Shown: positions 3,599-64,000, counted from the stretch's first letter. The stretch: DNA of 64,000 nucleotides from Dehalococcoidia bacterium (GCA_965204445.1 OZ241992.1:2369773-2433772), one strand, 5' to 3'. The notes: generated by a model not told the origin, from the sequence alone. A program made the numbers and translations.

Positions 3599-3642
3599 GT
3601 TTGGGACCTTCTTTCGGGGTGTGATTATTGATGTGCGGGGGA

Positions 3643-3675
3643 TTTTCAACGCAAAGGCGCAGGGGCGCAAAGGGA
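3643..3675 (-). repeat. dispersed intergenic TTGCGCC-triplet repeat, copy a
   Basis: The reverse complement reads CCTTTGCGCCCCTGCGCCTTTGCGTTGAAAA, with three TGCGC/TGCGT cores at 8-bp spacing. It is immediately preceded on the minus strand by TATAAT. Confidence 0.8.
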
Positions 3676-3928
3676 TTATACACGCCGGCGCAACAGCCGC
3701 GACAATTCAACCATAGCGGGATGGCGCGCGGATGCGGCGGACTGCATTCTTTCATACCGCTAGACTAAGCAAGCCCATAGAGCCTCCATCCGGAACAACC
3801 TGAATGATTCACCGCTGCCGCCTTGCCAAGACGCGGCGGCGCTATTCCTGGACAGGGGTTGTTTGCGTTAGGGTTGCCATTTAGCGGAGTTCACCTTTTA
3901 TTTAGTAGATTAGCGGATTTCTCAATGG

Positions 3929-3957
3929 ACTTTGCGCCCCCGCGTCTTTGCGTTAAT
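3929..3957 (+). repeat. dispersed intergenic TTGCGCC-triplet repeat, copy b
   Basis: ACTTTGCGCCCCCGCGTCTTTGCGTTAAT, located downstream of the rpoD stop. Confidence 0.75.
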
Positions 3958-3987
3958 CACTCTCGCTAGGAAGGCGCAACCCCGCCC

Positions 3988-8481: not shown

Positions 8482-9569
8482 TATAGCAGTCTTTCTATGA
8501 AAATCTTAGCGATCCCCGGCTGAATTCTCTCAGCCACGCGCATCGCATACCAATCCGTCATACCCGACACATAGTCCACCACCGCATCCGATTCGCTTCG
8601 GCTGCGACGGGCATAGTCCGACGGGATTTCGTCCCGATGTTCGTTGAAATGGCGATACAGCAGCCGCACAATGCGCCGCGCCGCCTCGCCCTCGGCGCGC
8701 GCGTCCTGCGGCAGATACACATTCCTGAACATATACTCCCGCAGCTCCATAAACGCCTGCCGCACCGCATCGCCCATCCCGATTGCGGGCAAAGCGTCGG
8801 GATGCGCCCCGTTCAACCCGCTCGCCGCATACGAATTCTCTATGATGTCGCACACGATAGTGTCAATGCGCTCGGCATGCCGCCCGCCCAGCGCATTCAG
8901 CGTCCCCGACGGCAGATCCGCGGGCGAAAGAACGCCGGCGCGAAACGCGTCGGCAAGGTCGTGGTTAATGTAGGCTACCGCGTCCGATACGCGCACCACT
9001 TGCGCTTCGAGCGAAAGGCCGTCGTTGTCGACCCCGGCTAGGAAATCGCCGCGCGGCTTGGAGTGCCGCAGTATCCCCTGCCGCACCTCCCAAGTGAGGT
9101 TAAGCCCCCTGCCGTCCTTCTCCACGCGCTCCACGATACGCAGGCTTTGGCGGCTGTGCCGAAACCCGTCCGGATGAAGCTTGTCCAGCTCATCCTCGCC
9201 GATATGCCCGAAAGGCGTATGCCCCAAATCGTGCGCCATAGCGATGGCTTCCGCGAGATCTTCGTTCAAGTTCAGCGCCCGCGCGATAGTGCGCGCTATC
9301 TGCGCCACCTCAAGCGTATGCGTAAGGCGCGTAACATAATGATCGCCAAGCGGCGCGATAAACACCTGCGTCTTATGCTTCAGCCGCCGAAACGCCTTGC
9401 TGTGGATAACGCGGTCGCGGTCGCGCTGATACTCCGTGCGCACATCGGACGGCCGCTCCGGAACTGCGCGCCCGACGCTGCGCCCCGACCTAGCGGCATA
9501 CGGCGAGAGACATTCCTCGCGCTCTTCAAGTCGCCGGCGTATAACCGCCCGCTGTGCCGTCGCATTCAA
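8481..9569 (-). CDS. dgt: dGTP triphosphohydrolase-like HD-domain protein
   Basis: 362 aa. HD motif 'HTLEVAQIAR...AHDLGHTPFGHIGE'. It sits in the conserved position upstream of dnaG. Confidence 0.9.
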   Translation of the reverse strand: MNATAQRAVIRRRLEEREECLSPYAARSGRSVGRAVPERPSDVRTEYQRDRDRVIHSKAFRRLKHKTQVFIAPLGDHYVTRLTHTLEVAQIARTIARALNLNEDLAEAIAMAHDLGHTPFGHIGEDELDKLHPDGFRHSRQSLRIVERVEKDGRGLNLTWEVRQGILRHSKPRGDFLAGVDNDGLSLEAQVVRVSDAVAYINHDLADAFRAGVLSPADLPSGTLNALGGRHAERIDTIVCDIIENSYAASGLNGAHPDALPAIGMGDAVRQAFMELREYMFRNVYLPQDARAEGEAARRIVRLLYRHFNEHRDEIPSDYARRSRSESDAVVDYVSGMTDWYAMRVAERIQPGIAKIFIERLL

Positions 9570-9781
9570 CGAAATAACGCCTGCCTCCGCTTGCCCTTGC
9601 CTGCCATCGCCATATCAGTGCCCGCCAGCGCCCGCCGCGCGCCGCAACATCTAACCGCCGCATCCAGTATAACACACAAATTCGCTCTATCGGCAGGGCA
9701 AACCCGCAATTCGAGGCGCAATAAGTTCACACCCGCCCCGCAATCTATGATAACATCCAAGCCAAGGAGCGCTTGATTATT

Positions 9782-10531
9782 ATGGCTTGGGAAATAGGCA
9801 GCCTGTTTCTGATAATAGCCGCCGTAGCGGCAATGATCTACGGCGGCATGACGCTGACGCTAAATCAGATGAACAAGCGCTTCGACGAACTGAAAAGCGA
9901 AAACGAAGCGTTGGAAACCCGTCTCAGATCTGAAATCCAGGCATCGGAAACCCGTCTCAGATCTGAAATCCAGGCATCGGAAACCCGTCTCAGAAATGAG
10001 ATGAAGGCATCGGAAACCCGTCTCAGAAATGAGATGAAGGCGCAAAAAACCGAACTCAAAGCCGACATCCAAGCCGTCGACGCCAAAGTCACGGAATTGC
10101 GAAGCGATGTTCAAGCGCTCAACGCCAAAATTGAATCGGTGCGAATCGAACTCAAGGGCGACATTGACGCTCTCGACGCCAAAATTGAATCGGTACGCGT
10201 TGAACTCAAAGGCGATATAGACACCCTAAACGCCAAAATTGAATCGGTGCGAATCGAACTCAAGGGCGACATTGACGCCGCTAACCTCAAAATCGAATCA
10301 GTGCGAATCGAACTCAGCGACGCCATAAAATCATCCGAAGTCCGCATCAGAGGCGAAATCAACGGAGTGCGAACTGAGATAAAGGGCGACATCAAGACCG
10401 TTGAAACCCAACTCAAAGACGTAAGCGAATACGTCCTAGACGTCCACCTCAAAGTGTCCTACCTAGAAGGCTTCGCGCAAGTCCCGCGCATTGAGCGCAT
10501 CAGAGAGCCTCGCCAAGATCAGCCCGAATAA
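9782..10531 (+). CDS. membrane-anchored coiled-coil repeat protein
   Basis: N-terminal TM segment 'WEIGSLFLIIAAVAAMIYGG' followed by heptad-like repeats ('ETRLRSEIQAS' x2, 'ETRLRNEMKAS/Q' x2, 'NAKIESVRIELKGDID' x4). The ORF track starts at TTG 9773. I prefer ATG 9782, with AAGGAG at 9764-9769. Confidence 0.75.
   Translation: MAWEIGSLFLIIAAVAAMIYGGMTLTLNQMNKRFDELKSENEALETRLRSEIQASETRLRSEIQASETRLRNEMKASETRLRNEMKAQKTELKADIQAVDAKVTELRSDVQALNAKIESVRIELKGDIDALDAKIESVRVELKGDIDTLNAKIESVRIELKGDIDAANLKIESVRIELSDAIKSSEVRIRGEINGVRTEIKGDIKTVETQLKDVSEYVLDVHLKVSYLEGFAQVPRIERIREPRQDQPE
9914..10045 (+). repeat. 4 x 33-bp in-frame tandem repeat
   Basis: Units 1 and 2 (9914-9946 and 9947-9979) are identical: GAAACCCGTCTCAGATCTGAAATCCAGGCATCG. 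Units 3 and 4 share the variant ...AGAAATGAGATGAAGGC.... Confidence 0.9.
10115..10330 (+). repeat. 4 x 54-bp in-frame tandem repeat
   Basis: Units 1 and 3 are near-identical (GC.CT.AACGCCAAAATTGAATCGGTGCGAATCGAACTCAAGGGCGACATTGAC). Units 2 and 4 have diverged. Confidence 0.9.
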
Positions 10532-10559
10532 CCCACACCCGCGCCGCTAACACAAAACA

Positions 10560-10598
10560 AGCCCTCCGCCGATGCCGTCAGCCGGAGGGCTTTCGCTT
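10560..10598. terminator. bidirectional intrinsic-terminator-like hairpin
   Basis: Perfect 9-bp stem AGCCCTCCG / CGGAGGGCT with a 14-nt loop. It is followed by TTTCGCTT on the plus strand and by TTGTTTTGTGTT on the minus strand. It lies between two convergent genes. Confidence 0.65.
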
Positions 10599-10640
10599 GC
10601 CGCTATGCAATATGACTGCGCGAGCTACGCCGCCCGTCGC

Positions 10641-10895
10641 CTACACCCGCTCCCCAACCCCGGCCGTCTCCCCCACCATGCTCCGCAGCATCATCTCCAT
10701 CGCCATCGTATGGCTGCATGTGCCATACTTCGCAAAGTAATGACAGTTGCAACTCCACTTGCCCCCCTCATAGGAAATCTCGTGATCGGAATTATCCCCC
10801 CGAAAAGTAGCCTGACACTGCATCAGGACAACCCGCCCCTCTTGCACCGAGTAGTCCTTCGCCTTCTCTATCTTCCTAAAGAAGCTTGAGTCCAT
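10641..10895 (-). CDS. stand-alone SWIM zinc-finger protein
   Basis: 84 aa with the CxCx(n)CxH signature 'WSCNCHYFAKYGTCSHTMA'. Confidence 0.7.
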   Translation of the reverse strand: MDSSFFRKIEKAKDYSVQEGRVVLMQCQATFRGDNSDHEISYEGGKWSCNCHYFAKYGTCSHTMAMEMMLRSMVGETAGVGERV

Positions 10896-11148
10896 TCACT
10901 CCCCTCCTTGAAACGGCGTCCGATTAGCGGATATTCAATGATATGTGGCAACGCTGCTTTCGGCGAACCGCCCCGTATGCCTAGCCCGCCGCAGCCTTCA
11001 TATGCGCCCCACAATTTTACCCTTATCGCCCTGCCAGGTCAATCAAAAGACGCGCTAATCATCCCCACCACGCAGCGCCCATCAATCCGAAACCATCACG
11101 AACCCCTTGCGCCGACGGTCACTTAACGGGTTGTGCGCCCAATACAAC

Positions 11149-11375
11149 TACTCAGCGTGTCATGCGCCCAATTTTGAGACCGCCCCACGCCGCGCATCCT
11201 AACCTTGCGCCCAACACGGATACTCAGCGGATTATGCGCCCAATTTTGAGAATGCGCCGTGTTGCTATCAGAATGCCCCGGAGAAAGCCCCGCGCTACTA
11301 TCAGAATGCCCCGCGCTGCGTCAAAAATACCGCGGAGAATACCCCAAGCTGCCATCAGGACACCCCGCGCCACCT
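11149..11375. repeat. degenerate repeat block overlapping the 3' end of the MFS gene
   Basis: A 32-bp repeat TACTCAGCG..ATGCGCCCAATTTTGAGA occurs at 11149-11180 and 11221-11252. CTATCAGAATGCCCCG occurs at 11265-11280 and 11298-11313. Further units at 33-bp phasing follow. Confidence 0.75.
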
Positions 11376-12654
11376 CGCGAATCCCCACGCCGTCCCTACC
11401 CTCCCCCGCCTGCGTCAGCGTCAGCGCAGCCGTGTAAAACAGCGCCGCCACCGCCACGAAAGCGATGCGGTAGCTCCCCGTCAAGTCAAACGACAACCCC
11501 GCCAGCAACGGCCCGCCAAAAAACGAAACCGCCGTCGCCATATTCACCACCCCCATTATGCTGCCGTACCGCCGTATCCCGAAAGCATCCTGCACCATCA
11601 GCGGAAACAGCGCCCCGAATGCCCCCAAAAAGAAGCCGAACAGCGGCACGAACAACCACAAAAAGAACGCCGACGACCCCGCGAAATGCGTCAGCAGCAA
11701 CAAAAACGTCGCCTGCCCCGCCAAGTCGATCATCAACGCATAACGCGCCGTTATCCGCTCCGCCAGCAGCCCCATCACGAACTTGCCGCTCATCCCGCAT
11801 ATCGCCACCGAACTCAGCGCATACCCCGCCGTGGCGACCGACACCCCCTCCGCGTCCAAATGGTTGAATATCTGCGGCAGCACCGCGCTGTATGTGAATG
11901 TCCCCATCACCACCGCCGCCGTAGTCGCGTAAAACGCCTTAGCCCGCAGCGCCTCCCCCAGCGACCACCCCGTCAGCGCCGGCCCCCGCGCGTCCGCCGA
12001 TCCGCCCCCGCCCTGAGCCGTCGGAAACTCGCGCACCACCGCCAGCGTGTACACCGTCAGCGCAAGCCCTATCGCCCCGAATATCAGATAGCCGCCCGCC
12101 CACGGCGCAAGACTAGCGCCGCCCCAATTCCATGCTGCCCCAAGCGCCGCCGTTGTCAGTATCGGAAAAGCGAACCCGCCGGCGTTGTTCCCCATCAGCG
12201 TTATCCCCATCACCCGCCCGCGCTTTTCCTGAAACCATATCCCCACCAGCCGACCCGCCGGCAATATCGACGCCCCCGCATAACCGGCATACTGAAGCAA
12301 ACTCAGCGCATACCAATGCCAAAGCTCGCTCATAAGCGGACGCAGCAGATAACTCACCGCAATCAGCAGCATCGACGCCGTCATTATCCCGCGCACGCCC
12401 CGCCTATCCATTATCCACCCAAGCAGCGGCGCGATCATGCTCCCCACCGCCGTGAACGACAGCGACAAATTTATCTGCGTCCTACTCCAACCGAATGAAT
12501 CCTCCAACGGCGCTACAAACTGCCCAAAAGCGTACTGCCCCGCCCCCACCGTCAGCATCGCCGCCAAAAACGGCGCAGAAATAACCCACCAGCCCGCATA
12601 TATGCGCGGACGCGGAAAACGGCGCGGTGGGCGTAAAGACTTGACCATCGCCAT
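11224..12654 (-). CDS. MFS transporter with a repeat-encoded C-terminal tail
   Basis: 476 aa with about 12 hydrophobic segments and MFS loop motif 'MDRRGVRG'. The last roughly 60 aa ('RGVLMAAWGILRGIFDAARGILIVARGFLRGILIATRRILKIGRIIR') are encoded by the repeat block. Confidence 0.8.
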   Translation of the reverse strand: MAMVKSLRPPRRFPRPRIYAGWWVISAPFLAAMLTVGAGQYAFGQFVAPLEDSFGWSRTQINLSLSFTAVGSMIAPLLGWIMDRRGVRGIMTASMLLIAVSYLLRPLMSELWHWYALSLLQYAGYAGASILPAGRLVGIWFQEKRGRVMGITLMGNNAGGFAFPILTTAALGAAWNWGGASLAPWAGGYLIFGAIGLALTVYTLAVVREFPTAQGGGGSADARGPALTGWSLGEALRAKAFYATTAAVVMGTFTYSAVLPQIFNHLDAEGVSVATAGYALSSVAICGMSGKFVMGLLAERITARYALMIDLAGQATFLLLLTHFAGSSAFFLWLFVPLFGFFLGAFGALFPLMVQDAFGIRRYGSIMGVVNMATAVSFFGGPLLAGLSFDLTGSYRIAFVAVAALFYTAALTLTQAGEGRDGVGIREVARGVLMAAWGILRGIFDAARGILIVARGFLRGILIATRRILKIGRIIR

Positions 12655-12670
12655 TGAGTATAACCCATTA

Positions 12671-12700
12671 TTCGCCCCCTCTGCGCCCCTGCGCCAAAAA
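12671..12700 (+). repeat. dispersed intergenic TTGCGCC-type repeat, copy c
   Basis: TTCGCCCCCTCTGCGCCCCTGCGCCAAAAA, preceded by TATAAC. Confidence 0.65.
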
Positions 12701-12727
12701 TTGCCCCCAAATTCCCCAATTCACCCC

Positions 12728-12755
12728 TTGATACATTCGTTCTATTTATTATAAT
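12728..12755 (+). promoter_or_regulatory. sigma-70-like promoter candidate
   Basis: TTGATA (12728-12733), a 16-nt spacer, then TATAAT (12750-12755). It lies about 80 nt upstream of the 12835 ORF. Confidence 0.55.
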
Positions 12756-12834
12756 AGACCGCATAATCACAACACACACAATCCCTTCCCACTCAGGAAA
12801 AGGCTAGGATACGGATAACCCCCGCGCAACCGCT

Positions 12835-13143
12835 ATGAGCATCGACGCCACCATACAACGACTCACCCTCGAAGATATAGCTGAACTCCAAGCCTACAAA
12901 GCCGAACTAGAATCCAGGCGCGTCGACGACATCGAACCCCCACGCCGCAAAGCCCAAAAGCGCAAAGCCGCTGCCAACGAAAAGAACGGAAAGGCGCAAG
13001 ACAACCACGCCAACGGCAAGCCGCCCGACGGCGCCGCCGCCATAATCCTCTATAACGAACCCCTATCCATCGAAGAGTGGAAGCGCTCGCGAAAAACCCT
13101 AGCCCACCCCGAAAACATCCCCGCAAACGCCCGCAGCCCCTAA
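12835..13143 (+). CDS. hypothetical lysine-rich small protein
   Basis: 102-aa ORF downstream of a near-consensus promoter. No clear RBS and no domain. Confidence 0.4.
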   Translation: MSIDATIQRLTLEDIAELQAYKAELESRRVDDIEPPRRKAQKRKAAANEKNGKAQDNHANGKPPDGAAAIILYNEPLSIEEWKRSRKTLAHPENIPANARSP

Positions 13144-13144
13144 C

Positions 13145-13257
13145 CCCCTCTGCGCCCTTACACCCTTGCGCCAAAAAATCCTACCCAACCCCTTTGCGCC
13201 CCTGCGCCTCTGCGTTAAAAACCTTAGGCCAGACCCTTTGCGCCCCCTGCGCTAAAA
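13145..13257 (+). repeat. three tandemly arranged copies (d1-d3) of the TTGCGCC-type repeat
   Basis: d1 (13145-13177) reads CCCTCTGCGCCCTTACACCCTTGCGCCAAAAAA. d2 (13189-13221) reads CCCCTTTGCGCCCCTGCGCCTCTGCGTTAAAAA. d3 (13233-13257) reads ACCCTTTGCGCCCCCTGCGCTAAAA. They lie between convergent genes. Confidence 0.8.
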
Positions 13258-13276
13258 CCCGCGCGTAGAATGCGCC

Positions 13277-14467
13277 TTAAGACGCCGCGTCCGGCAGCCA
13301 TCCCCACGGACGCGGCCCCCAATCCGGCGAGTACACTTCGCCGCCCTTGACCGTCGCAATCGGCACAAGCGCCTTGTCCCCCCGCAGCGTATCGCCCTCC
13401 GTGTCGCGGAACAGCCAATCGCCCGTCTCTTCTTTAAGCACGCTAATGTCCGCCGCTCTGCCCACCGCAAGCGAACCCAGCGCATCCCGCATCCCCAGCG
13501 CGCTTGCGGGGTTCGCCGTCGCCATCCGTATCACATCCTCCAGCGAAAACCCCAGCGCCATAAACCGCGCCAGCATCTCCGTCAAGCTATGCACCGTGTT
13601 CCGCCGCCCCGGCGGCGTCATATCCGTGCTTATGCTCAGCGGACGCACTCCCTGATCCAGCGCCTGCCTTGCCACGCGAAAGCTGAAGTTCTGCCTGCCG
13701 TGCGCCGTATCCAAGAACACGCCGCGCTCCTGCGCCTCCAAAACCTCAGGGATGACCCTGCCGCCGCCGTCAATAATGCGCCCCGGATTGCCGCTGAACA
13801 GATGCGTTACGATGTCCCCGCGCTCCAGCAGCGGCAGCAGTTGGCGCGTCAGCGTCGGCCCGTCTTCGTCCACCCCCGCGATGGATCGATCGCCGATATG
13901 AACCATCAGCCGCACGCCGCCCTCGACTGCGGCGCGCTTCGCCAGCTTCACCATCTCTATGCCCATTCGCCGTACGCCCGGCCCAACCGCCCGAATCTTG
14001 ACGCCCTGAATCAGCGGCTTGTTGGCGTTGATGACGCTGATAGTTTCGTCAAGGTCGATATCCTCGCGCCGCGCTGTATCCGGCTGGTAGCTCAGCCCAA
14101 CGCGCGATATGTGCAGCATGCAGAAGATACGCGTCGCCGCCTGCGGCACAACATAGCGCGGGAAGCCGCCGAATGTGTACGCCCCCGCGCTGCCGGCATC
14201 GACTAGCGTTGTTACGCCGGAGCGCACGCCCGCAATATCGGGGTTGATGCCGTTCTGATTCACCCCCTCATACACATGCGTATGCAGGTCAATCATGCCC
14301 GGCGCCACGATGCAGCCGCTAACATCGATAACCCGCCGCGCCGTATCCGCCCCGATGTTGGGCGCAACCGCCGATATGACGCCGCCCGTTGCCGCGACAT
14401 CCAGCTTCGCCCTGACATTCTGCGCCGGGTCTATAACCTCGCCGCCCTTGAGCAACAGATCCGCCAT
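13277..14467 (-). CDS. amidohydrolase-superfamily metallohydrolase (dihydroorotase/deacetylase-like)
   Basis: 396 aa. 'LLLKGGEVIDP' N-terminus and metal-binding motif 'APGMIDLHTHVYEG'. GGAGG lies upstream. Confidence 0.85.
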   Translation of the reverse strand: MADLLLKGGEVIDPAQNVRAKLDVAATGGVISAVAPNIGADTARRVIDVSGCIVAPGMIDLHTHVYEGVNQNGINPDIAGVRSGVTTLVDAGSAGAYTFGGFPRYVVPQAATRIFCMLHISRVGLSYQPDTARREDIDLDETISVINANKPLIQGVKIRAVGPGVRRMGIEMVKLAKRAAVEGGVRLMVHIGDRSIAGVDEDGPTLTRQLLPLLERGDIVTHLFSGNPGRIIDGGGRVIPEVLEAQERGVFLDTAHGRQNFSFRVARQALDQGVRPLSISTDMTPPGRRNTVHSLTEMLARFMALGFSLEDVIRMATANPASALGMRDALGSLAVGRAADISVLKEETGDWLFRDTEGDTLRGDKALVPIATVKGGEVYSPDWGPRPWGWLPDAAS

Positions 14468-14524
14468 AGCGAAACCTCCAAGTTGTGAATGCTGTGTATC
14501 GTATGGGAACGCCCGCCATTAGCG

Positions 14525-14977
14525 TTATCCCAGGATTTCGCTAACATCCAACGCCGCATCCGGCAGCAGCGCCGGCGCTATGCGATCGCCGCGCGCATAC
14601 CGCCGCACAGCGCCATAGCCCGCCCCGACGGGATCGGACAGCCCGTCTATGTAATCCTCATCCAAGTTCACCAACCATAGTTCGGGAATGCCCGCCTCGG
14701 CGTACATCGGAGTCTTCACATCCCTATCGTACTCGACCGTGCTGTGCGAAACCTCTACTATCAGCAGCGCAATATCCGGCTCCGGCTCGGAGCGCTCGCT
14801 CAGACGGACGGGGTTCTGTACTCGGACGATTACGCGCCGCCCAAGCGTCTCCCTGAACAGCCTGTTTAGGGTATTCACACAACCCGCATGGTAGCTTCCG
14901 ATAGGCGCCATCTGAACAATCTCCCCGTCTATGAGCTCCACGCGGTCACGCGGGCTCAGAATGCCCGCCTCCGCCAT
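14525..14977 (-). CDS. Uma2-family (DUF820) putative endonuclease
   Basis: 'ELIDGEIVQMAP', 'EPDIALL' and 'VEVSHSTVEYDRDVKTPMYAEAGIPELWLVNL' match the Uma2 pattern. It is somewhat short at the N-terminus. Confidence 0.75.
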   Translation of the reverse strand: MAEAGILSPRDRVELIDGEIVQMAPIGSYHAGCVNTLNRLFRETLGRRVIVRVQNPVRLSERSEPEPDIALLIVEVSHSTVEYDRDVKTPMYAEAGIPELWLVNLDEDYIDGLSDPVGAGYGAVRRYARGDRIAPALLPDAALDVSEILG

Positions 14978-15125
14978 AAGATATTATTCCTTGACGCTGA
15001 ACCGCCGCTTTGTGATTGCCGGCGCCGGCATCGTTGTCAGTGTTGCCATATCATCCCCCTTTTGTTCTTGTTCCAACCCTGCGTTGGCTATGTCTCGAAA
15101 CGGTTCTGTTACATTTGATGGGTAG

Positions 15126-17582: not shown

Positions 17583-18418
17583 GGTATTCTTAGTGGTGAG
17601 TGGTATTGAGTTTGAGCTTGGCGCAGAAGACTAGCGCAAGCAGACTCACCAGCATCTCCACGCTCTTTGCGCAGCCTTTGTCCGACGAACTAACCGATTC
17701 AACTTCCCGCGCAGCATCGAATGCAATCCTTCATTCCAGTTCACCGTCCCGTACCTCCCAACCACATGCTTGTTGACCGGCAGCGCCCCGTACATTCCGT
17801 ATGCGTCGGTCTCGTAGCGCTCCGCATCCGGCAGACGCTCCAGCAACCGCAAGAAAGTGGCTTCGTCCCTGCCCCCCACCTCAAAGTCTATCCACCTGCT
17901 CACGTCGCGCTCTTCCACCACCGCTGTCCACACCCACAGATCGTTGCGCTTTTCTTCTCTTCTAGCGCCCAAGTATGTCCACATTTCGTCAAGCGCTATC
18001 GTCAACGCAGCGATTGTCGCAGCCCGCCCGCTTGCGCGCCACGCGCTTATTGCGCGCATCCGTTCAAGCGCTATCGCCCCCCTTTTTTGACCCAGCCACT
18101 CACCGATGCAGCGCTTGCGCCCACTACGCGCGCCGCCGCCGATATGCTCGCGCCCTCTATGCGCATCTGAACCGCCTGCCGCCTGGTCTGCTCCGGGAAG
18201 CGCGGCCGCGCTGCGTCCGCCGTGTACTTCCGCTTGCAATCCCCGCACTTGTACACTTGCCTGCCGCGTGTGTGTCCGTCTTTGGGCATCCAATTGGAGC
18301 CGCAGTGGCGGCATCTAACATCGTGTCGATATGACCGCTCGCGCGCCATTAGATCGCATCCTAGATAGTAGTGGTCTGAGTGCCATTATATCTAATGCCA
18401 CTCGATTTTGTGAATACC
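17583..18418. mobile_element. IS1-family insertion sequence
   Basis: Imperfect terminal inverted repeats: GGTATTCTTAGTGGTGAGTGGTATT (17583-17607) against the reverse complement of 18394-18418, GGTATTCACAAAATCGAGTGGCATT (17/25). The internal gene organisation is InsA/InsB-like. Confidence 0.75.
17646..18349 (-). CDS. IS1-family transposase InsAB' (InsA 18071-18349; fusion by -1 frameshift)
   Basis: InsA-like zinc finger 'CRHCGSNWMPKDG...YKCGDCKRKY' plus an HTH. The slippery motif TCAAAAAAGGG (T-run at 18083-18088 on the plus strand) lies exactly where the -1 frame 'KRGAIALERMR...DEMWTY...' opens. Confidence 0.8.
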
Positions 18419-25492: not shown

Positions 25493-27853
25493 TTAGTTAG
25501 AGACGCTTGTCGTAGAGATGTCTAGCGTCAGCATGAAATTGCCGACGGTTTCGATGTGGTAGGTGGTAGCCTCTATGGTGTAGCTGCCCGCCTGCAGTTG
25601 CTCGGTTATTCGAGAGTCGCCCCGGTTGACGATGGAGCCGGAGTTGCCTACGCCCTCTAGCAGGTAGAGGTAGGTGTCCGCCACATCGTCGGACGAGATG
25701 CTGACGGTTACGCTTGACGCGGCCTCAAGCGTGAATGTGTAGAAGCGCGCATAGCGGGTTCCCGCTTTTGCGGTTGCGGGCGTCTTATCCGATAGGCAAT
25801 CGGCGTTCCATGTGCCGGTTAGCCAACCCAATCCGGTCTTGCGAATGCAGCCGGGCGCCAATGTCGACGCTGATGCGCGCGTGGGAGTTGCCGTAGGAAT
25901 GGTCGTAGACGTCGCCGTGGGCGTGGTTTCCAGCACGGTTACCGGCGTATTCGTCGGCGTGGGCGTATGGGTTGGCGTTGCCGTCGGGATGGTTCCTCCA
26001 AGTTCCGCCACTCTATCGGTCAGTGCATCGACGAGCCCGCGCAACGATTCGATAAGCCTATTCAGCGTTCCCATATCTTGGAACGTTCCCGCCCGGTCGC
26101 GCAACGCCCCGACTTGCTCTTCAAACTCGTCTAGCCCACCGCCTATGGGCGTGGACACGCCGGTTGCGGTTGGCGTGAGCGTAGGGGCGAGTTCGTCCGT
26201 GATGACCGTGCTCGTAGGCGTTGGGATAGATTCGCTTGTGGACGAAACGCTTGTGGACGTGGGCGTATGAGTTGCCGTTGCTGTGGGCGCAGGTTCGTCT
26301 GTTGCCGAAACACTCGTGGAAGTCGGCGTAAGCGTGGGTTCGCCTGTGGCTGAAACGCTCGTTGCCGTGGGCGTGTGAGTCGGTGTTGAAGTTGTTGTGG
26401 GAGCAGGCGTTGACGATCCGCTCACACCGAATAGGTGTACCGTTACATAGATTACGTCCGTACCCAATTGGTCATCTGCATCGTTGGTTACTCGGACTTC
26501 CACCCTATGGAAGGGTCTCGACCATGTATTCAGCCTGGCATCTACGGACAGAACGCCCGAAGAAGAAATGGCGAACACGCGCGGCTCGCCTATAGCGGCG
26601 CGGAGCCTAAACTTAATGGCGTCTCCGTCCGGATCGCAGGCATCGAAATCCTCCAACACCGTGCGCGTTAGCGAATCTCCGTCTATCCAATAAACCGGAT
26701 CTCTTCCTCTAGAGAAGGTAGTGCGTGGTCGGGCTGTGGCGCAGTCTGTGTCATCATAGACGAAGTAAGGCGGACTGTTGACAAGCGTGGGCGTATGAGT
26801 AGGCTCAGGCGTAGGCGTAAGAGTTGGGATTGGCGTTTCTATGGGCGCAGATGTGGCCGGCGGCGTTGACTCGCCAAATTGGTTTTTGCCCCAGCATACT
26901 ACAGCGCCATCCGCGCGAAGACCGCACTTATGGCTCCCGCCACCGCTTATGGATGCGAAGGTTTCACCCGCAGGCGGCGTTGTTTGACCATAATCGTTAA
27001 GCCCCCAGCATACTGCGACTCCGTCATTTCGCAATCCGCAAGTATGCCGAGCGCCGGCGCTTATAGACGCGAAGGTTTCACCCGCAGGCGGCGTTGACTG
27101 ACCGAATCCGTCATAACCCCAACATACCGCAGCGCCATCCGCGCGAAGACCGCAGGCATGACGATGTCCGGCGCTTATGGATGCGAAGGTTTCATCCGCA
27201 GGAGGCGTTGACTGACCGAACCTGTTATCGCCCCAGCATACTGCGGCGCCGTCATTTCGCAGTCCGCAGGTATAAGACGTATTAGCGCTTATAGACGCGA
27301 ATGCGCCCGCAGGAGGCGTTGCCTCGCCATGTATGTTACGCCCTCCCCAGCATACTGCCGCGCCATCCGCGCGAAGACCGCAAGTATGAGAGTAACCGAC
27401 ACTTGCAACGCTTGCAACGCTTATAGACGCGAATGCGCCCGTAGGGGACGTTGGAGGCGCTGACCTATTGTACTTGGCATCACCCCAGCACACTGCCGCA
27501 CCATCCGCGCGAATACCGCAGGCGTGGCGGAATCCAGTGCTAATAGATGTGAAGACACCTGACGGCGGAGAAATCTGATCATGCGCGTTAAGTCCCCAGC
27601 ATACTGCAGCGCCATCCGTGCGAATACCGCAGGTGAGACCGTCTCCGGCGCTTACGGCGCTGAATGTCATTGCGCGCGGTGTGCTTGTGGATGTGGGCGT
27701 GTTGTCGACGCCCTGCTGCGCGCTTGCGTCGTCCGCATTTGCGAGCAGGGTGAACAGCAGCAACGCCACCACTGTGAGGGCGGTGAGGAAGTAGAGCGCG
27801 GATTTAGAACCTATGAACGGGGGGGGGGGGGGGGTAAATCGTATGTTCGGCAT
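25493..27853 (-). CDS. secreted RCC1-repeat protein with beta-sandwich (cadherin-like) domain, Thr/Pro linkers and C-terminal PPC-like domain
   Basis: 786 aa. Signal/TM segment 'ALYFLTALTVVALLLFTLLANA'. About seven repeats of 'H.CGLRADGAAVCWG.N.FGQSTPP'. T/P/S-rich linkers. The C-terminus 'YARFYTFTLEAASSVTVSISSDD..TYLYLL' is pre-peptidase-C-terminal-like. Confidence 0.8.
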   Translation of the reverse strand: MPNIRFTPPPPPFIGSKSALYFLTALTVVALLLFTLLANADDASAQQGVDNTPTSTSTPRAMTFSAVSAGDGLTCGIRTDGAAVCWGLNAHDQISPPSGVFTSISTGFRHACGIRADGAAVCWGDAKYNRSAPPTSPTGAFASISVASVASVGYSHTCGLRADGAAVCWGGRNIHGEATPPAGAFASISANTSYTCGLRNDGAAVCWGDNRFGQSTPPADETFASISAGHRHACGLRADGAAVCWGYDGFGQSTPPAGETFASISAGARHTCGLRNDGVAVCWGLNDYGQTTPPAGETFASISGGGSHKCGLRADGAVVCWGKNQFGESTPPATSAPIETPIPTLTPTPEPTHTPTLVNSPPYFVYDDTDCATARPRTTFSRGRDPVYWIDGDSLTRTVLEDFDACDPDGDAIKFRLRAAIGEPRVFAISSSGVLSVDARLNTWSRPFHRVEVRVTNDADDQLGTDVIYVTVHLFGVSGSSTPAPTTTSTPTHTPTATSVSATGEPTLTPTSTSVSATDEPAPTATATHTPTSTSVSSTSESIPTPTSTVITDELAPTLTPTATGVSTPIGGGLDEFEEQVGALRDRAGTFQDMGTLNRLIESLRGLVDALTDRVAELGGTIPTATPTHTPTPTNTPVTVLETTPTATSTTIPTATPTRASASTLAPGCIRKTGLGWLTGTWNADCLSDKTPATAKAGTRYARFYTFTLEAASSVTVSISSDDVADTYLYLLEGVGNSGSIVNRGDSRITEQLQAGSYTIEATTYHIETVGNFMLTLDISTTSVSN
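26850..27670 (-). repeat. about 114-120-bp tandem coding repeats (RCC1 blades)
   Basis: The recurrent DNA words GCGCCATCCGCGCGAAGACCGCA and CCCCAGCATACTGC are seen six to seven times. Confidence 0.8.
27819..27834 (-). repeat. 16-nt homopolymer (poly-C on the coding strand) in codons 7-12 of the RCC1-repeat gene
   Basis: The plus strand carries G16. It encodes 'TPPPPPF' between the ATG and the signal peptide. Confidence 0.95.
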
Positions 27854-28047: not shown

Positions 28048-28155
28048 CCGACGGGCAGTTACCCGACGGGGCGCTGTCAACGTTCGCCTTGCGCCCGTTC
28101 TGCGCGACGAAGCGAACAACCTAGCTAGATGGAATGCAATGGGAAGGATGACAAT

Positions 28156-36274: not shown

Positions 36275-37030
36275 CTATTCGGGGGCGACATGGAACACCC
36301 AATTAGCGAGTGCCTGACCATCCGGGTCATCGTCCGGGAATATGCTCCACTTTGCGAATACTAACAGGTAGGGATTATCCAATATATCAGTCGGTATTCG
36401 GTGAATCTCCACAAAGCCGTCCGCGCTTTCTCGCATACAAGGGTCTATCTGACCCAACGCGCACTCATACTCTACATAATGTCCGCTGCGGTCAATATCC
36501 GCGCCGATGGGAATGCCGCTGCCGTCGGGGTTCAACCCGGGGTATCCTTCAACAAATACCAGTCCAGGCTTCACATCGGTTAGGAAACGCACGACAGAGT
36601 TTGAGCTATCTATAACGGTTGCCTCCGGCCAGATAAAAGGGGGGTCGCGTCCTTCCACCAGTGTTGGGGTAGCTGATATGAAATCCCACTCTGCGCTCAA
36701 GAGATCGCCGTCAACTATGGCGCTAACGGAACCGCCGCTGACTATCTGCGCTTTAGGGAGATCGCGCGGCGGCGGATAGTATCTCACCAGCAACACTTCC
36801 TCTTCTTCTTCGTATGCTTCTTGCGCCGCTTCGCCTATCGTCTCTTGCGCATATTCCGATTGTGATTCCGTCGCAGTATACGTGACTGGCTGCTCACCCG
36901 CATCGGGCGGCGATTGCGCGCACCCCAAGCCGGCAAGCAGCCAAATCGTCAAGAGCGCCGTCAGGGTTGTCCGCCAACTCACCCACAGGGCGGGCGAGAA
37001 GCGTTTCCCTTGTAGTATCAGATATGACAT
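36275..37030 (-). CDS. hypothetical secreted protein or lipoprotein
   Basis: 251 aa. The N-terminal hydrophobic segment ends 'LLAGLGCAQS'. No domain recognised. Confidence 0.6.
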   Translation of the reverse strand: MSYLILQGKRFSPALWVSWRTTLTALLTIWLLAGLGCAQSPPDAGEQPVTYTATESQSEYAQETIGEAAQEAYEEEEEVLLVRYYPPPRDLPKAQIVSGGSVSAIVDGDLLSAEWDFISATPTLVEGRDPPFIWPEATVIDSSNSVVRFLTDVKPGLVFVEGYPGLNPDGSGIPIGADIDRSGHYVEYECALGQIDPCMRESADGFVEIHRIPTDILDNPYLLVFAKWSIFPDDDPDGQALANWVFHVAPE

Positions 37031-37036
37031 CCCTAA

Positions 37037-37075
37037 CCCTTTGCGTCATTTGCGCCATTGCGCCCTTGCGTTAAG
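37037..37075 (+). repeat. dispersed intergenic TTGCGCC-type repeat, copy e (four units)
   Basis: CCCTTTGCGTCATTTGCGCCATTGCGCCCTTGCGTTAAG, with cores spaced 9, 8 and 8 bp. Confidence 0.8.
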
Positions 37076-37206
37076 AGCATCCTCCAATCGCGCAACTCAT
37101 ACTCATAGAGGGACAAGGGAATTGTAATGCAGTCATAAGCGTTGTCAACATAGTTCCAAATATCACATAGCTTAGGCATAAATGCGCCAAACCCTCCGCA
37201 CTCAGG

Positions 37207-37235
37207 TTGCCCCCTACCCGCTTGGCGTCTATAAT
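37207..37235 (+). promoter_or_regulatory. sigma-70-like promoter candidate for the second LLM gene
   Basis: TTGCCC (37207-37212), a 17-nt spacer, then TATAAT (37230-37235). Confidence 0.45.
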
Positions 37236-37327
37236 GCGCCCTATGCTACCGTTGCTACCCGCCCGCCTAATGCCACCGCCGCCTACACCGCTTGCGAACT
37301 TGCGAATATGAACGAAAGGACAATGAT

Positions 37328-58730: not shown

Positions 58731-60491
58731 TTATGCGCTTTCTACAATCGGCTGCGGCATCGGGGCGCTGACAGCGTCCATAGCGTAGGGGCGGGTGTTC
58801 TTGGGATAGACCGCGGGGCGAAGGCAGCTCCCCGTGGGGCAGCGCTTCTGCTGAATATGCGCCATAAAGTCCGCCTCAAAATGCTGCAATGCTGAGCGTA
58901 TAGGCCCAAAGCCTAGCTGCCCATGCCCGCACAGCGAGCTCGACTCCATCGTCCTGCCTATGTTTCGCATAAGGTCAAGATCCGACGGGCGGCTCTCGAA
59001 GCGCGCCACGCGGTTGACCACCTCTAGAAGCTGCTCCATGCCCAGGCGGCAGGGGAAGCACTTGCCGCACGATTCGTACTGCGTGAACGCCACAAGATTG
59101 CGCGTAATGTCCACGGCGCAGGTGTCTTCGTCTATGACGATGACGCCGCCGGAGCCAAATATGGCGCCCGCCTCGCGCATCTCATCGAAGTCGATGTGAA
59201 CGCCTAGGCTGTCAGCGCCCAGCACGCCGCCGAGCGGCCCGCCCGTCTGCAACATCTTCAGGCGCTTGCCGTCCGGAACGCCGCCGCCGATGTCGTTGAT
59301 GACCTGCCCAAGCGTCAGCCCCATCGGCACTTCGTACAAGCCCGGATACTTCACTTTGCCGTTGAGGCACACTATCGCGGTGCCGGCGCTTCGGCTGACG
59401 CCTATGGACGAAAACCATTCGGCGCCCTTGGCTATGATTTCGGGCGCATACGATAGGCTTTTCACATTGTTGATTGTGCTGGGCATTCCCCATACGCCAA
59501 ACGCCGCTGGGAACGGCGGCCGATAGCGCGGCTGCGAGCGATGCCCTTCGATCGCCTCCATCAGCGCCGTCTCTTCGCCCGCCACATACGATTCGCCCGT
59601 CAGCGCCACCTCTATATCGAAGTTGAATGTGGAGTTCAGGATGTTCTGCCCAAGCAGTCCGTACTCATACGCCTGCTCTATGGCGCGCTCCGTGCGGCTT
59701 ATCGGCCCCTCATGCCCGTGCCTAATGAACACGAAGCCGTTTGTGGCGCCGGTGGCATAGCCCGCGATGCACATACCCTCAAGCAGCGTGTACGGATCGC
59801 TTTCCAGAATGCCCTTATCGTTGTAAGCGCCCGGATCGCCCTCTTCGCAGTTGCACAGGATATACTTGGGCGGATCGGAGCGCACCATAAAGCTCCACTT
59901 CACGCCGGTGGGAAACGCCGCGCCGCCCCTGCCGCGCAGCCCTGAGTCGGTAACCTCTTTGATTACCTCTTCCGGCTGCATCTCAAACAGCGCCCTATGC
60001 AGCCCAGCATAGCCGCCGTTGGCGATGTACTGCATAATGTCCGAGGGCGCGGCAACGCCGGCGTTTCGCAATGCAATCCGCTGCTGCATCTTGATGCCCG
60101 GCAGTTCCGCGAGGTTCGGCGCGCCGTCTATCGGCGTATCGCCCAGATACCCCAGCAACTTGGCGCTCGGCAGCCTATCGTCCACCAACACATCCCGGAC
60201 AATGCCAGGCACGTCGTCCGGCGCGACATTGCCGAAGAACAGGCGCGAACCGCCCGGCTTCTGTATATCCACCAGCGGTTCGGCGTAGCAGAGGCCCAGA
60301 CAGCCCACTTCGTCGATGTTGGCGTCGACGCCCTGCCTATCCAGCTCTGCAATAAGCGCGTCGCGGACTTCGAATGCGCCCGCGGCGTGGCCGCACATCG
60401 CCGTGCCGATACGCGCCCACGGCTTGTTGCCCGCCGTCAGCTCCCGCCAGCGGCTGTCCGCCTGCGCCTTCAATTCCTCATATTGAGGCAT
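58731..60491 (-). CDS. NuoF/FdsB-like NAD(H)- and FMN-binding Fe-S subunit
   Basis: 'GLRGRGGAAFPTG', 'GEETALMEAIEG' and 'ESCGKCFPCR'. It has an N-terminal thioredoxin-like extension. Confidence 0.9.
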   Translation of the reverse strand: MPQYEELKAQADSRWRELTAGNKPWARIGTAMCGHAAGAFEVRDALIAELDRQGVDANIDEVGCLGLCYAEPLVDIQKPGGSRLFFGNVAPDDVPGIVRDVLVDDRLPSAKLLGYLGDTPIDGAPNLAELPGIKMQQRIALRNAGVAAPSDIMQYIANGGYAGLHRALFEMQPEEVIKEVTDSGLRGRGGAAFPTGVKWSFMVRSDPPKYILCNCEEGDPGAYNDKGILESDPYTLLEGMCIAGYATGATNGFVFIRHGHEGPISRTERAIEQAYEYGLLGQNILNSTFNFDIEVALTGESYVAGEETALMEAIEGHRSQPRYRPPFPAAFGVWGMPSTINNVKSLSYAPEIIAKGAEWFSSIGVSRSAGTAIVCLNGKVKYPGLYEVPMGLTLGQVINDIGGGVPDGKRLKMLQTGGPLGGVLGADSLGVHIDFDEMREAGAIFGSGGVIVIDEDTCAVDITRNLVAFTQYESCGKCFPCRLGMEQLLEVVNRVARFESRPSDLDLMRNIGRTMESSSLCGHGQLGFGPIRSALQHFEADFMAHIQQKRCPTGSCLRPAVYPKNTRPYAMDAVSAPMPQPIVESA

Positions 60492-60573
60492 AGCCTATCC
60501 TATGTATTCGTTACGCCTATACCCGCCGAAACACCGCCCTGTTCAATCAGAGCGCGGCAGGCGCAGGGAAAAC

Positions 60574-61071
60574 CTAATGACCGCCGCCGTTTCGCGCAAC
60601 ATCTCGAATCTCAGTAACGCGACGCAATGCTGATTCGACGTTGATGCGCCCGGCGAGCCGATGATTCACCATCATCACCGGCGCCTGAGAGCACGCCCCC
60701 AAGCAGGTGTTGTACTTAAGGCTAACGCCGTTGTCCGCCGTTTCGCCTTCATCCGCAAGCCCAAGCTCCGCCATCACCGCGCTCAAGATTTCGGGCGCGC
60801 CAAGCAGGTGGCAGGTAGGCCCCCAGCATATCTCGACCACATTATCGCCCGGCGGCGTGAACCTAAAGTTGGTGTAGAACGACGCCACGCCCCAAACTTC
60901 GTTTATCGTGGTCTGCGTGTAATCGGCTACCTCTTCTATCGCCATATCCGGAATGTAGCCCAAATCGTCAAGCACCGCATGCAGCGAAGACAGCACATTG
61001 ACGTTCGTCTTCGTCTGCGATGCTATCGCAAGTTTCACGCGCTCCCTAAGGGCATCGTTCTGCGCACTCAA
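60574..61071 (-). CDS. NuoE/FdsG-like 2Fe-2S subunit
   Basis: 165 aa with 'CWGPTCHLLGA' and 'CLGACSQAP'. Confidence 0.9.
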   Translation of the reverse strand: MSAQNDALRERVKLAIASQTKTNVNVLSSLHAVLDDLGYIPDMAIEEVADYTQTTINEVWGVASFYTNFRFTPPGDNVVEICWGPTCHLLGAPEILSAVMAELGLADEGETADNGVSLKYNTCLGACSQAPVMMVNHRLAGRINVESALRRVTEIRDVARNGGGH

Positions 61072-61391
61072 CGGGCAAGCTCCTTACGCCTGGCTTGACT
61101 ATCCCACGCCCGATATTCACCGCCTAATAGGATACTTGCCAAGCCCCGCAAACGCAACCTTCTAGCGGCTCGGCATTCTCGCTTTTCAGTGGCGCAGGGT
61201 ACAATGGCGTCCAAATCGCTGTTACGACGGAAAAATCGCTTATGAATATGAAAACGAAAACCGATAGTCCCAAGTATATCCCCCAAACAATATGCTAAAC
61301 TCTCTCAGGTATGCTATCTTTTATGTTAGCCGGCGCCGCGCTGCGGCAACAACTACAAAAACCGCTTTTGTTTTGCACATGGAGGTAACCA

Positions 61392-61652
61392 GTGGCAAGC
61401 CTTATGGAACGCGTTCAAGAGATTGTCGCCGACAAACTCAGCGTGGATGAATCCGAAGTGGTCGCGGATGCGTCCTTTATGGAAGACCTCAACGCCGATT
61501 CGCTCGACCTCGTCGAGCTCATAATGGCGTTTGAGGAAGAGTTCAGCTCCGACGACAACACCATCGAAATCTCCGACGAAGACGCCGAGGGCATCACCAC
61601 CGTCCAGCAGGCGATAGACTACCTCAAAGAAAAGGGCGTCGCCGACGACTAG
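61392..61652 (+). CDS. acpP: acyl carrier protein
   Basis: '[20 protein letters not shown]' phosphopantetheine site. GTG start 6 nt after GGAGG; the alternative is ATG 61404. Confidence 0.9.
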
Positions 61653-61689
61653 CCGCCCGCCCGTTCCCCAAACTGCCCCGCCCGCGATA

Positions 61690-61716
61690 GGGGCGAGCCC
61701 GCGATAGGCTCGCCCC
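61690..61716 (+). terminator. hairpin downstream of acpP
   Basis: Perfect 10-bp stem GGGGCGAGCC / GGCTCGCCCC with a 7-nt loop. The U-tail is weak (CAATTTGCGTT). Confidence 0.5.
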
Positions 61717-61760
61717 CAATTTGCGTTGTCCCCTCAAACCGCGATACTACGCTAACAATC

Positions 61761-61856
61761 ACCTTTGCGCTATTGCGCCTTTACGTTAAACATCCCCATA
61801 AGCAATCGATACTAGCGCCAAAACCACTTTGCGCTTTCTGCGCCTTTGCATTAAAA
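61761..61856 (+). repeat. two copies (f1, f2) of the TTGCGCC-triplet repeat
   Basis: f1 (61761-61790) reads ACCTTTGCGCTATTGCGCCTTTACGTTAAA. f2 (61825-61856) reads CACTTTGCGCTTTCTGCGCCTTTGCATTAAAA. Confidence 0.8.
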
Positions 61857-61934
61857 TATCCCCTAACCTAAAAAAAGCCTATAGAGGACGGACGCCGCAT
61901 ATGAAGCCCACGCGAACAGCCGGCATATTTTCTA

Positions 61935-61951
61935 CCCCCCCCCCCCCCCCC
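61935..61951 (+). repeat. 17-nt poly-C tract upstream of the GLUG-repeat gene
   Basis: C17 lies about 205 nt upstream of ATG 62156, inside a short ORF 'MKPTRTAGIFSTPPPPPAIP...' that starts at 61901. Confidence 0.95.
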
Positions 61952-62155
61952 GCAATACCACTGCATTGCAAAGACGCGCGCGCCAAAACTGCTGTCGAGT
62001 TTCATCTTGGAATCGCGCGCAACGAATACGCGCGCGCGCCCAAACCGATATTCTTATTATGCGCTTGATCGCGTAACCCGCGAACTATACCCTGATACAG
62101 GGTTTTCGTAGCAAGATCCGAACTCATAGTAGCCGTAAGGTGAGAGTAACCGAAT

Positions 62156-63712: not shown

Positions 63713-64000
63713 CAGCAACTCCCGCATAGAAACCGTGGGCATAACCAACGCCACCGTCACCGGATCCATCTACACCGGCATCCTAGCCGGCACCAACGGC
63801 GGCTCCGTCATCGCCTCATACACCACCGGATCGGTTAGCGGCACAACCAGGGTCGGCGGCATAATCGGCTACCAAGGCCTGAACGCAGCGTCCATCCATT
63901 CCAGCTACAGTACCGCATCCGTCAGCGGCACTCAGTATGTCGGCGGCGTGCTGGGGCAAAAGTTCGGCAGTGTAACCAACTCATACGCCACCGGCCTGGT
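63693..64000 (+). CDS. continuation of the GLUG-repeat protein in the +1 frame (partial, runs off the window)
   Basis: 'GLFSSFSSNSRIETVGITNATVTGSIYTGILAGTNGGSVIASYTTGSVSGTTRVGGIIGYQ...' aligns with 'GLFSLIGIGARVEALNITAANITGNNYVGVLASYNIGEVIAVYTAGSV' of module 1. Confidence 0.65.

Follow-up and report, generated by a model that had tools for sequence, protein, structure and literature searches.

REPs and similar small intergenic repeats usually form hairpins, are specific to a species, and have a known transposase; KOPS and Chi are short words that occur throughout genes; and attC sites are imperfect palindromes read by IntI. REP/BIME elements and REPINs have RAYT (Y1) transposases as their partners and are targets for insertions and rearrangement joints (PMC3333891, PMC2817692, PMC1525189). 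[quoted passage not shown]

Here, we describe a family of short repeats seen in a 64,000-nucleotide stretch of DNA (the window, C1:2369773-2433772) from a Dehalococcoidia genome (G000; 3,184,375 bp plus a 34,662-bp contig, 60% G+C), which we compared mainly with G007 (OZ241999.1) and G018 (CBDBDI010000003.1), both labelled "MAG: Dehalococcoidia bacterium" and of the same genus. The repeat, here called an arm, resembles REP/BIME elements in that it is about 30 bp long, high-copy, intergenic, close to gene ends, clustered with conserved linkers, and lineage-specific within the genus. It differs from them in not being palindromic (a stem of 4 bp only), whereas the REP unit is an imperfect-palindrome stem-loop; in the direct arrangement of neighboring arms (24 of 25), whereas BIME and REP doublets alternate; and in that no RAYT is present in any of 10 genus genomes and the sequence crosses phyla, whereas REPs are species-specific. 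Like the Geobacter sites, which have three to five tandem units of 7 to 9 nt, the arm is intergenic and multicopy, with three TGCG cores 8 bp apart, but the unit sequences are different, arms in G000 are mostly single or in direct tandem rather than in opposite-strand pairs, and function is only predicted in both cases. MITEs share with the arms a non-coding, multicopy, and patchy nature and burst-like copy numbers, but the arm is a single-arm form that lacks a terminal inverted repeat (TIR) and a target-site duplication (TSD), and no parent IS with the same ends was seen. The strand-biased orientation is reminiscent of KOPS and Chi, but arms are only intergenic and are absent from 19 of 22 genus genomes, and the position at cassette borders and strand-specific use recall integron attC sites, but arms have no attC architecture. 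Finally, the identical 27-mer is paired and inverted in Sorangium, Verrucomicrobia, and Chlamydiales, among others, a foldback design of which the partner is usually missing in this clade. A literature search for the arm sequence returned no paper containing it.

Results

A sequence-only reading of the window had noticed a dispersed, strictly intergenic repeat built from TTGCGCC-like units at 8-bp phasing, and our analysis establishes this motif as a genuine non-coding intergenic repeat family. The arm is an ordered array of about 30 bases in which two to four octamers of the form YYTGCGYY are closed by a GTTAAAA cap, with the consensus CCCTTTGCGCC-CCTGCGCC-TTTGCGTTAAAA. Three TGCG cores exactly 8 bp apart are found at 145 places in the whole assembly, the number of units being variable and the phasing strict, and the position matrix of these places has the consensus CCCTTTGCGCC-(C/T)CTGCGCC-TTTGCGTTAAA(A) and sharp borders at -5 and +25. 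The genome-wide matrix scan that the sequence-only reading had called for was performed with a profile HMM built from the 145 places (nhmmer) and gave 234 matches at E<=0.01 (115 on the plus and 119 on the minus strand), and in an independent count 155 genome sites were within two mismatches of the 27-mer compared to 0 for the backwards pattern. The density is about one arm per 14 kb, and in the window the 21-nt core pattern matched 7 times against 1.6 expected from dinucleotide shuffles. Another sequence, GTTTCCCCCGCCCACGCGGGGATAGACC, has about 135 copies genome-wide and looks like a CRISPR repeat.

As single-stranded DNA, the sole stem that the arm could form is a 4-bp GCGC/GCGC pairing (-4.6 kcal/mol), so the earlier statement that the copies have no self-complementarity was essentially right. 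Rfam 15 gave no match in the window at the gathering score and none at E<=1 in the stretch from 12600 to 13300. No TIR or TSD is visible in the arm position matrix or in the junction sequences described below, and among the multicopy protein families there was neither a parent IS with ends like the arm nor a transposase adjoining arms. A fragment of an IS or MITE end was rejected on these three grounds (no TIR, no TSD, and no parent IS seen).

All nine copies that had been reported in the window are present and were recovered by the genome-built profile. The arm at 3641..3676 (39.1 bits), on the minus strand, has three octamers and a GTTGAAAA cap and lies about 45 nt upstream of a minus-strand gene that starts near 3598. 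The remaining eight are on the plus strand, a count that reflects the locally C-rich plus strand and does not extend to a bias over the genome. The arm at 3930..3959, a profile match that reads TTTGCGCC-CCCGCGTC-TTTGCGTTAA, is conserved at the orthologous site of G018. At 12671..12700 (profile match, 12678-12695), a two-unit arm, TCTGCGCC-CCTGCGCC-AAAAA, forms the first element of a multicopy cassette, and homology with G018 stops at 12668, 3 bp before it. Directly after the stop codon of the remnant gene of this cassette lies a degenerate arm with a weak score of 6.3 bits (13145..13177; profile match, 13147-13175), the position of which is kept in all full cassettes. It is followed by a near-consensus arm (13188..13223, 38.8 bits) and then by the linker AACCTTAGGCCAGAC, which gives rise to a 44-bp tandem period across 13145-13257, and by a two-unit arm that is common to G018 (13233..13259; profile match, 13234-13259) and whose 5' edge, at 13239, is a synteny joint with that genome. 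Four units make up the arm at 37037..37076 (profile match, 37048-37076), which lies at a distance of 6 bp from the start codon of the gene 36275-37030 on the minus strand and has a G018 synteny break about 60 bp to its right. The last two arms are diverged: one at 61760..61793 (21 bits), downstream of an acyl carrier protein gene and its hairpin terminator, and a direct repeat of it 30 bp further on, at 61823..61856 (14 bits). Long poly-C tracts are also present in G000 (148 windows of C12, including 61935-61951).

Two weaker resemblances noted before did not hold up. The look-alike at 28083-28106 was not recovered by the profile (E>1), and the block with a ATGCGCCCAA core at 11149-11252 is an unrelated local duplication, its 18-mer occurring twice in the genome; ATGCGCCCAA itself occurs 63 times. 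Boxes resembling a -10 element are often followed by the word (A)ATGCGCC, as in TATAATGCGCC; examples in the window are at 37178-37187, 37233-37243, and 13267-13276.

For the placement of arms relative to genes, we used a home-made and crude ORF caller based on codon usage (2,528 genes, 84% of the DNA), and these ORF calls look sound because the excess of G at first codon positions is equal in all skew classes. The 16% of the DNA without an ORF call holds 210 of the 234 copies (about 90%), an enrichment of about 45-fold that bears out the proposed dispersed and strongly intergenic nature of the family, and the 24 copies inside ORF calls mostly overlap over-extended 5' ends. Stop codons lie at a median distance of about 30 bp from an arm and start codons at about 100 bp, on either side and in either orientation. 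Relative to the flanking genes, orientation is nearly random (68 same-same, 55 opposite-opposite, 45 convergent, and 42 divergent), and the gene on the 5' side of the arm has the same orientation in 113 cases and the opposite one in 97. Arms are therefore not promoters, intrinsic terminators, or REP-type hairpins, as the sequence-only reading had argued, since orientation is random, there is no usable structure, and Rfam is empty; the promoter and terminator readings were dropped on the orientation statistics and the absence of structure. Neighboring arms within 200 bp of each other form direct pairs in 24 of 25 cases, often with the linker AACCTTAGGCCAGAC in common, and inverted pairs are rare in G000 (1 of 25, or 4 of 16 with a looser detector).

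Arm orientation follows the local GC skew, with agreement in 82 to 91% of cases. When flanks were read in the direction of the arm, the skew was -0.25 at 5 to 50 bp (93% negative), -0.11 to -0.12 at 150 to 2000 bp (89% negative), -0.06 at 2 to 10 kb (80% negative), and about 0 at 10 to 50 kb (52% negative); in the 150- to 2000-bp flanks the C-rich strand of the arm lies on the C-rich strand of the genome in 89% of cases. The skew is alike on both sides of the arm, and changes of skew sign are not enriched at arms (18 to 24% versus 26 to 30% at control gaps). With the cassette copies removed, the GC3 skew of the flanking genes was -0.22 (82% negative) for either gene direction. The running sum of arm orientation mirrors the cumulative GC skew along the G000 chromosome, and 19 of 20 arms in 8-kb loci of G007 and G018 have the same polarity, while solo arms from other phyla showed no skew polarity. 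Orientation is predicted correctly in 91% of cases from composition at 5 to 65 bp and in 87% from regional skew, each adding significantly to the other, and since local and regional composition both contribute, a plain preference for C-rich targets rivals a replication-linked cause. Along the G007 chromosome, the two arm strands are interspersed. Leading and lagging strands are not assignable from the skew because dnaA (C1:1,704,382) lies near the maximum of the cumulative skew in G000 and not near the minimum.

The GC skew of G000 is itself a mosaic of domains of about 10 kb that reach locally up to +/-0.3, for example at 9000-15000 and 59000-64000 of the window. The GC3 skew of genes has a standard deviation of 0.23 to 0.25 and is correlated between neighbors of the same (r=0.64) and the opposite (r=0.51) direction, and the regional strand bias is independent of the direction of transcription.

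Blocks were compared across the three sister genomes for the window and two other 20-kb regions, the sister genomes being read in pieces. These genomes are extremely reshuffled, with shared blocks that are a few kb long and scattered. We find that arms are over-represented and polar at rearrangement joints. In the window, the arms at 12671 and 13233 have joints at their 5' edges (12668 and 13239). Elsewhere, a 1.9-kb segment with a GmrSD nuclease gene is bounded by a stop codon on one side and by the 5' edge of an arm on the other (junction A); next to dnaA, at G000 position 1,703,837, the left flank of one G007/G018 locus, an arm, and the right flank of another locus are combined, a combination that therefore places the crossover inside the arm (junction B); three genomes have three different left flanks next to an identical arm and right flank (junction C); and a 215-bp indel adjoins the 5' edge of an arm (junction D). 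At 7 of 16 exact-arm sites of G007 and G018, the two flanks are at different G000 loci, and in several of these each flank ends at an arm there; reciprocal arm-to-arm exchanges were also seen (sites 8 and 10 of the 16). In the region G000 C1:1703837-1704858, dnaA lies directly behind a recombination-joint arm and has a different chromosomal context in each of the three sister genomes.

The two sides of an arm site were non-adjacent in G000 at 16 of 28 sites (57%) compared to 30 of 109 arm-free intergenic sites (27.5%; Fisher p=0.006, or 0.018 with clustered arms collapsed); the samples were small and came from loci selected around arms. Because breaks are frequent at arm-free intergenic sites as well, the enrichment amounts to only about 2-fold, and this control (27.5% broken) rules out that nearly all joints are at arms. 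The 3' flank still abuts an arm in G000 at 25 of 34 sites and the 5' flank at 15 of 34, and among the discordant cases in these 34 sites, 10 had kept the 3' flank and replaced the 5' flank compared to 0 with the reverse (p=0.002).

The arm was kept in both genomes at 11 of 12 collinear orthologous sites, and none of the 12 was a clean empty site; the number of units and the sequence beside the 5' edge vary. Arm identity at 10 collinear sites was 0.878 and that of the flanks was 0.865 and 0.869, so that arm copies now drift like neutral DNA; purifying selection on the arms was not seen in the same figures, the arms being no better conserved than their flanks.

The variable DNA beside arms includes the GmrSD nuclease, a restriction-modification methylase, and the orphan cassette described below. 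Of two strain-variable segments that abut arms (G000 C1:1695671-1697294 and C1:629363-632386), one has a GmrSD-family nuclease and the other an N6 methylase with a specificity domain. Sister-genome homology also breaks at two genes that contain in-frame tandem repeats (33/54 bp and 114/228 bp), at 9913-10316 and 26889-27389. At 17583-18418, the window has an IS1-like element of about 835 bp with a 222-amino-acid ORF that matches DDE_Tnp_IS1; the element is not associated with arms and is present roughly ten times or more in G018 and several times in G007.

The region from 12670 to 13265 of the window matches about ten 2.2-kb units in the genome. In the full unit, an arm comes first, then a near-consensus TTGACA-17-TATAAT promoter and the gene for a 459- to 681-amino-acid orphan protein, and last three or four arms on the same strand; every full copy (at G000 C1:377110-379155 and nine further places) has arms on the gene strand at both ends. 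In the window, an internally deleted copy at 12701..13143 on the plus strand has retained a predicted TTGATA-17-TATAAT promoter, a leader, and a 102-amino-acid remnant at 12835-13143, and the arm cluster at 12671-13257 is what remains of such a multicopy gene cassette. The cassettes hold about 20 strong arm copies as well as weaker ones, and only 19 of the 234 strong copies are within 4 kb of orphan-protein genes. In the orphan protein, three helical repeats occupy the N-terminal part (T.DG.TI..FL...M.G...HR..AA.ELL.RGFG), and the tail is long, charged, of low complexity, and variable in length. The protein had no sequence match in Pfam, PHROG, or the PDB, and its AlphaFold model (pLDDT 38) was too poor for a structure search. 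Its 308 close relatives are all from this clade, and a profile search found 246 distant relatives, one of which carries the module ahead of an Mrr-type nuclease domain (Mrr_cat), a fusion that hints at DNA binding. The one distant-homologue locus that was examined had no arms.

The search for the motif in related genomes, also called for earlier, placed it in 3 of 22 genus genomes and in at least six phyla. Sites within two mismatches of the 27-mer number 155, 142, and 132 in G000, G007, and G018, respectively, and 0 in the other 19 of the 22 genus genomes, and among 40 relatives scanned the motif was confined to G000 and two genomes of the same genus. G007 and G018 have 92 to 97% identity with G000 in shared blocks compared to 69 to 77% for other genus genomes. 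Of 301 evenly sampled Chloroflexota, 13 had a match, with low copy numbers outside this clade. When one genome per species was searched, exact TTTGCGCCYYTGCGCCTTTGCGTTAAA was present at at least 115 loci, and at least six phyla contain the exact 27-mer (Myxococcota, Verrucomicrobiota, Acidobacteriota, Chlamydiota, Planctomycetota, and Chloroflexota), the matches listed including Sorangium, Byssovorax, many Verrucomicrobiota, Pyrinomonadaceae, Blastocatellaceae, Chlamydiales, Planctomycetota, Anaerolineae, and Caldilineaceae. The loci listed from other phyla have the consensus (TTTGCGCC)n-TTTGCGTTAAA and often form an inverted pair, TTTTAACGCAAAGGCGCAAAG-loop-CTTTGCGCCTTTGCGTTAAAA; by a strict test, an inverted partner lies within 150 bp in 40 of the 121 exact matches listed. 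An exact scan of viral contigs gave only 2 matches, and a BLAST search against plasmids and phages gave none, with a low-complexity filter that may hide matches.

Searches for known partner enzymes were negative: PF01797 (RAYT, Y1 transposase) had 0 matches in G000, G007, G018, and 7 other genus genomes, while the control genomes matched, and no PF13366 (GxxExxY) or PF05635 (IVP) genes were present in G000, G007, and G018. As its distribution shows, the family was not made within this lineage. That only three sister genomes of the genus carry the motif, with about 130 to 155 copies each, suggests that the element was acquired and then went through a burst in copy number in this clade.

Discussion

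The molecular features of this family are best accommodated, in our view, by a REP-like selfish repeat in a single-arm variant that acts as a recombination hotspot, an explanation that we hold to be somewhat better than even. The arm would be one half of a non-coding, non-autonomous repeat of which, in other phyla, two arms usually face each other as a foldback. A recent ancestor of G000 and its two sister species would have acquired the element horizontally, and a burst before the split of the three genomes would have brought it to about 150 to 230 copies, mostly single or tandem direct arms; the approximately 12% divergence of orthologous copies fits the 0 to 2 mismatches per 27-mer seen today. 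Copies would have landed in tolerated spots just behind genes, spread by a trans-acting mechanism that is sensitive to strand or composition and is probably not RAYT, and at present they would act chiefly as hotspots of recombination and as zones where accessory genes land. Among the three readings put forward from the sequence alone, the decayed miniature mobile element is the one that fits best, with its cross-phylum presence, its restriction to 3 of 22 genomes, and a drift like that of the flanks. There are points against it: no TIR or TSD is visible, no candidate enzyme was found (PF01797, PF13366, and PF05635 being absent), and the enrichment at breakpoints is only about 2-fold. Mobility is inferred from distribution because there was no empty site among the 12 collinear sites. 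An identical 27-mer in distant phyla is also hard to reconcile with purely neutral selfish DNA, and a conserved reader may be involved.

The polarity of the joints raises the question of whether arms are polar sites for site-specific recombination or landing, with a trans-acting enzyme that would read one strand, cut or join at the edge between CCC and TTTGCG, and so drive cassette exchange and shuffling. The octamer arm would then belong to an undescribed, horizontally spreading, strand-specific recombination system and serve as a polar dock for swaps of accessory genes and shuffling of segments, and if true, this would explain the cross-phylum identity, the composition polarity, and the one-sided replacement of flanks. 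We find this unlikely. Joints do fall exactly at the 5' edge of the arm (junctions A, C, and D and window positions 12668 and 13239), an arm more often remains with its 3' flank (25 of 34 sites) than with its 5' flank (15 of 34; discordant cases, 10 versus 0), accessory defense genes and the multicopy cassette abut arms, and 24 of 25 neighboring arms are direct. However, no recombinase or transposase is tied to the arms, the Y1 transposase being absent, only one side of the 1.9-kb GmrSD segment is bordered by an arm, many breaks are at arm-free sites, and arm conservation is not above background, the samples being small throughout. The strict 8-bp phasing and variable unit number would also suit arrays of binding sites at which an oligomeric or multi-repeat protein, for example a nucleoid protein or a global regulator, binds DNA with one octamer per domain. 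The arm-bracketed orphan protein has three helical N-terminal repeats and a relative whose Mrr-type fusion suggests DNA binding, and the analogous Geobacter repeats are annotated as "global regulator binding sites" (PMC2700814). Such a multi-domain or oligomeric reader had been proposed before and found no direct support here; it stays a rival that we regard as quite improbable. Placement is unrelated to promoters, arms of both orientations lying nearer to stops (about 30 bp) than to starts (about 100 bp), arms show no extra conservation, the orphan protein family is confined to the clade while the arm is cross-phylum, the one distant-homologue locus is without arms, and the structure model reached a pLDDT of only 38.

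The tie between orientation and skew could alternatively mean that arms, like KOPS, Chi, or Ter, are polar sequences linked to replication, the orientation of which relative to the fork is kept by selection. The running sum of orientation mirroring the cumulative skew, the density of about one per 14 kb, and the presence of GCGCAGGG-like words on the G-rich strand agree with this. It is nevertheless very doubtful, as arms are restricted to intergenic DNA, are missing from 19 of 22 genus genomes, lack polarity in other phyla, where inverted pairs cancel direction, and are interspersed on both strands along G007, with dnaA near the cumulative-skew maximum; composition at 5 to 65 bp, moreover, predicts orientation better than regional skew does, which also fits a preference for C-rich targets. 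Hardly probable, and the least likely of the explanations that we weighed, is that arms act in RNA as 3'-UTR stabilizers, C-rich Rho-loading tracts, or processing sites. The median position about 30 nt after stop codons and the C-rich, G-poor composition of the arm strand and its flanks are in line with this, but both orientations are found behind genes at similar rates (113 same versus 97 opposite), the stem has 4 bp at most, Rfam is empty at E<=1, and arms are not conserved beyond their surroundings; the RNA-level motif suggested from the sequence alone thus found no support in Rfam, structure, or orientation.

Relative to that first reading, we add the spread across phyla, the dependence of orientation on strand composition, the association with rearrangement joints, and the assignment of 12671-13257 to the remains of a cassette. 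New here are the orientation that follows the skew, the approximately doubled breakpoint frequency with some crossovers inside arms, the polarity of the breaks, and a conservation of arms that is no better than that of their flanks. The arm has no hairpin and no known enzyme, and yet the same 27 bases are found from Sorangium to Chlamydiales and in about 150 to 230 copies in one Dehalococcoidia clade. If the polarity and the one-sided joints do not hold genome-wide, the arms still are a new and well-documented family of selfish DNA between genes, which annotators should mask. If they do hold, the family would offer a handle on how repeats spread between phyla, a marker of rearrangement history, and possibly a route to a new recombination activity.
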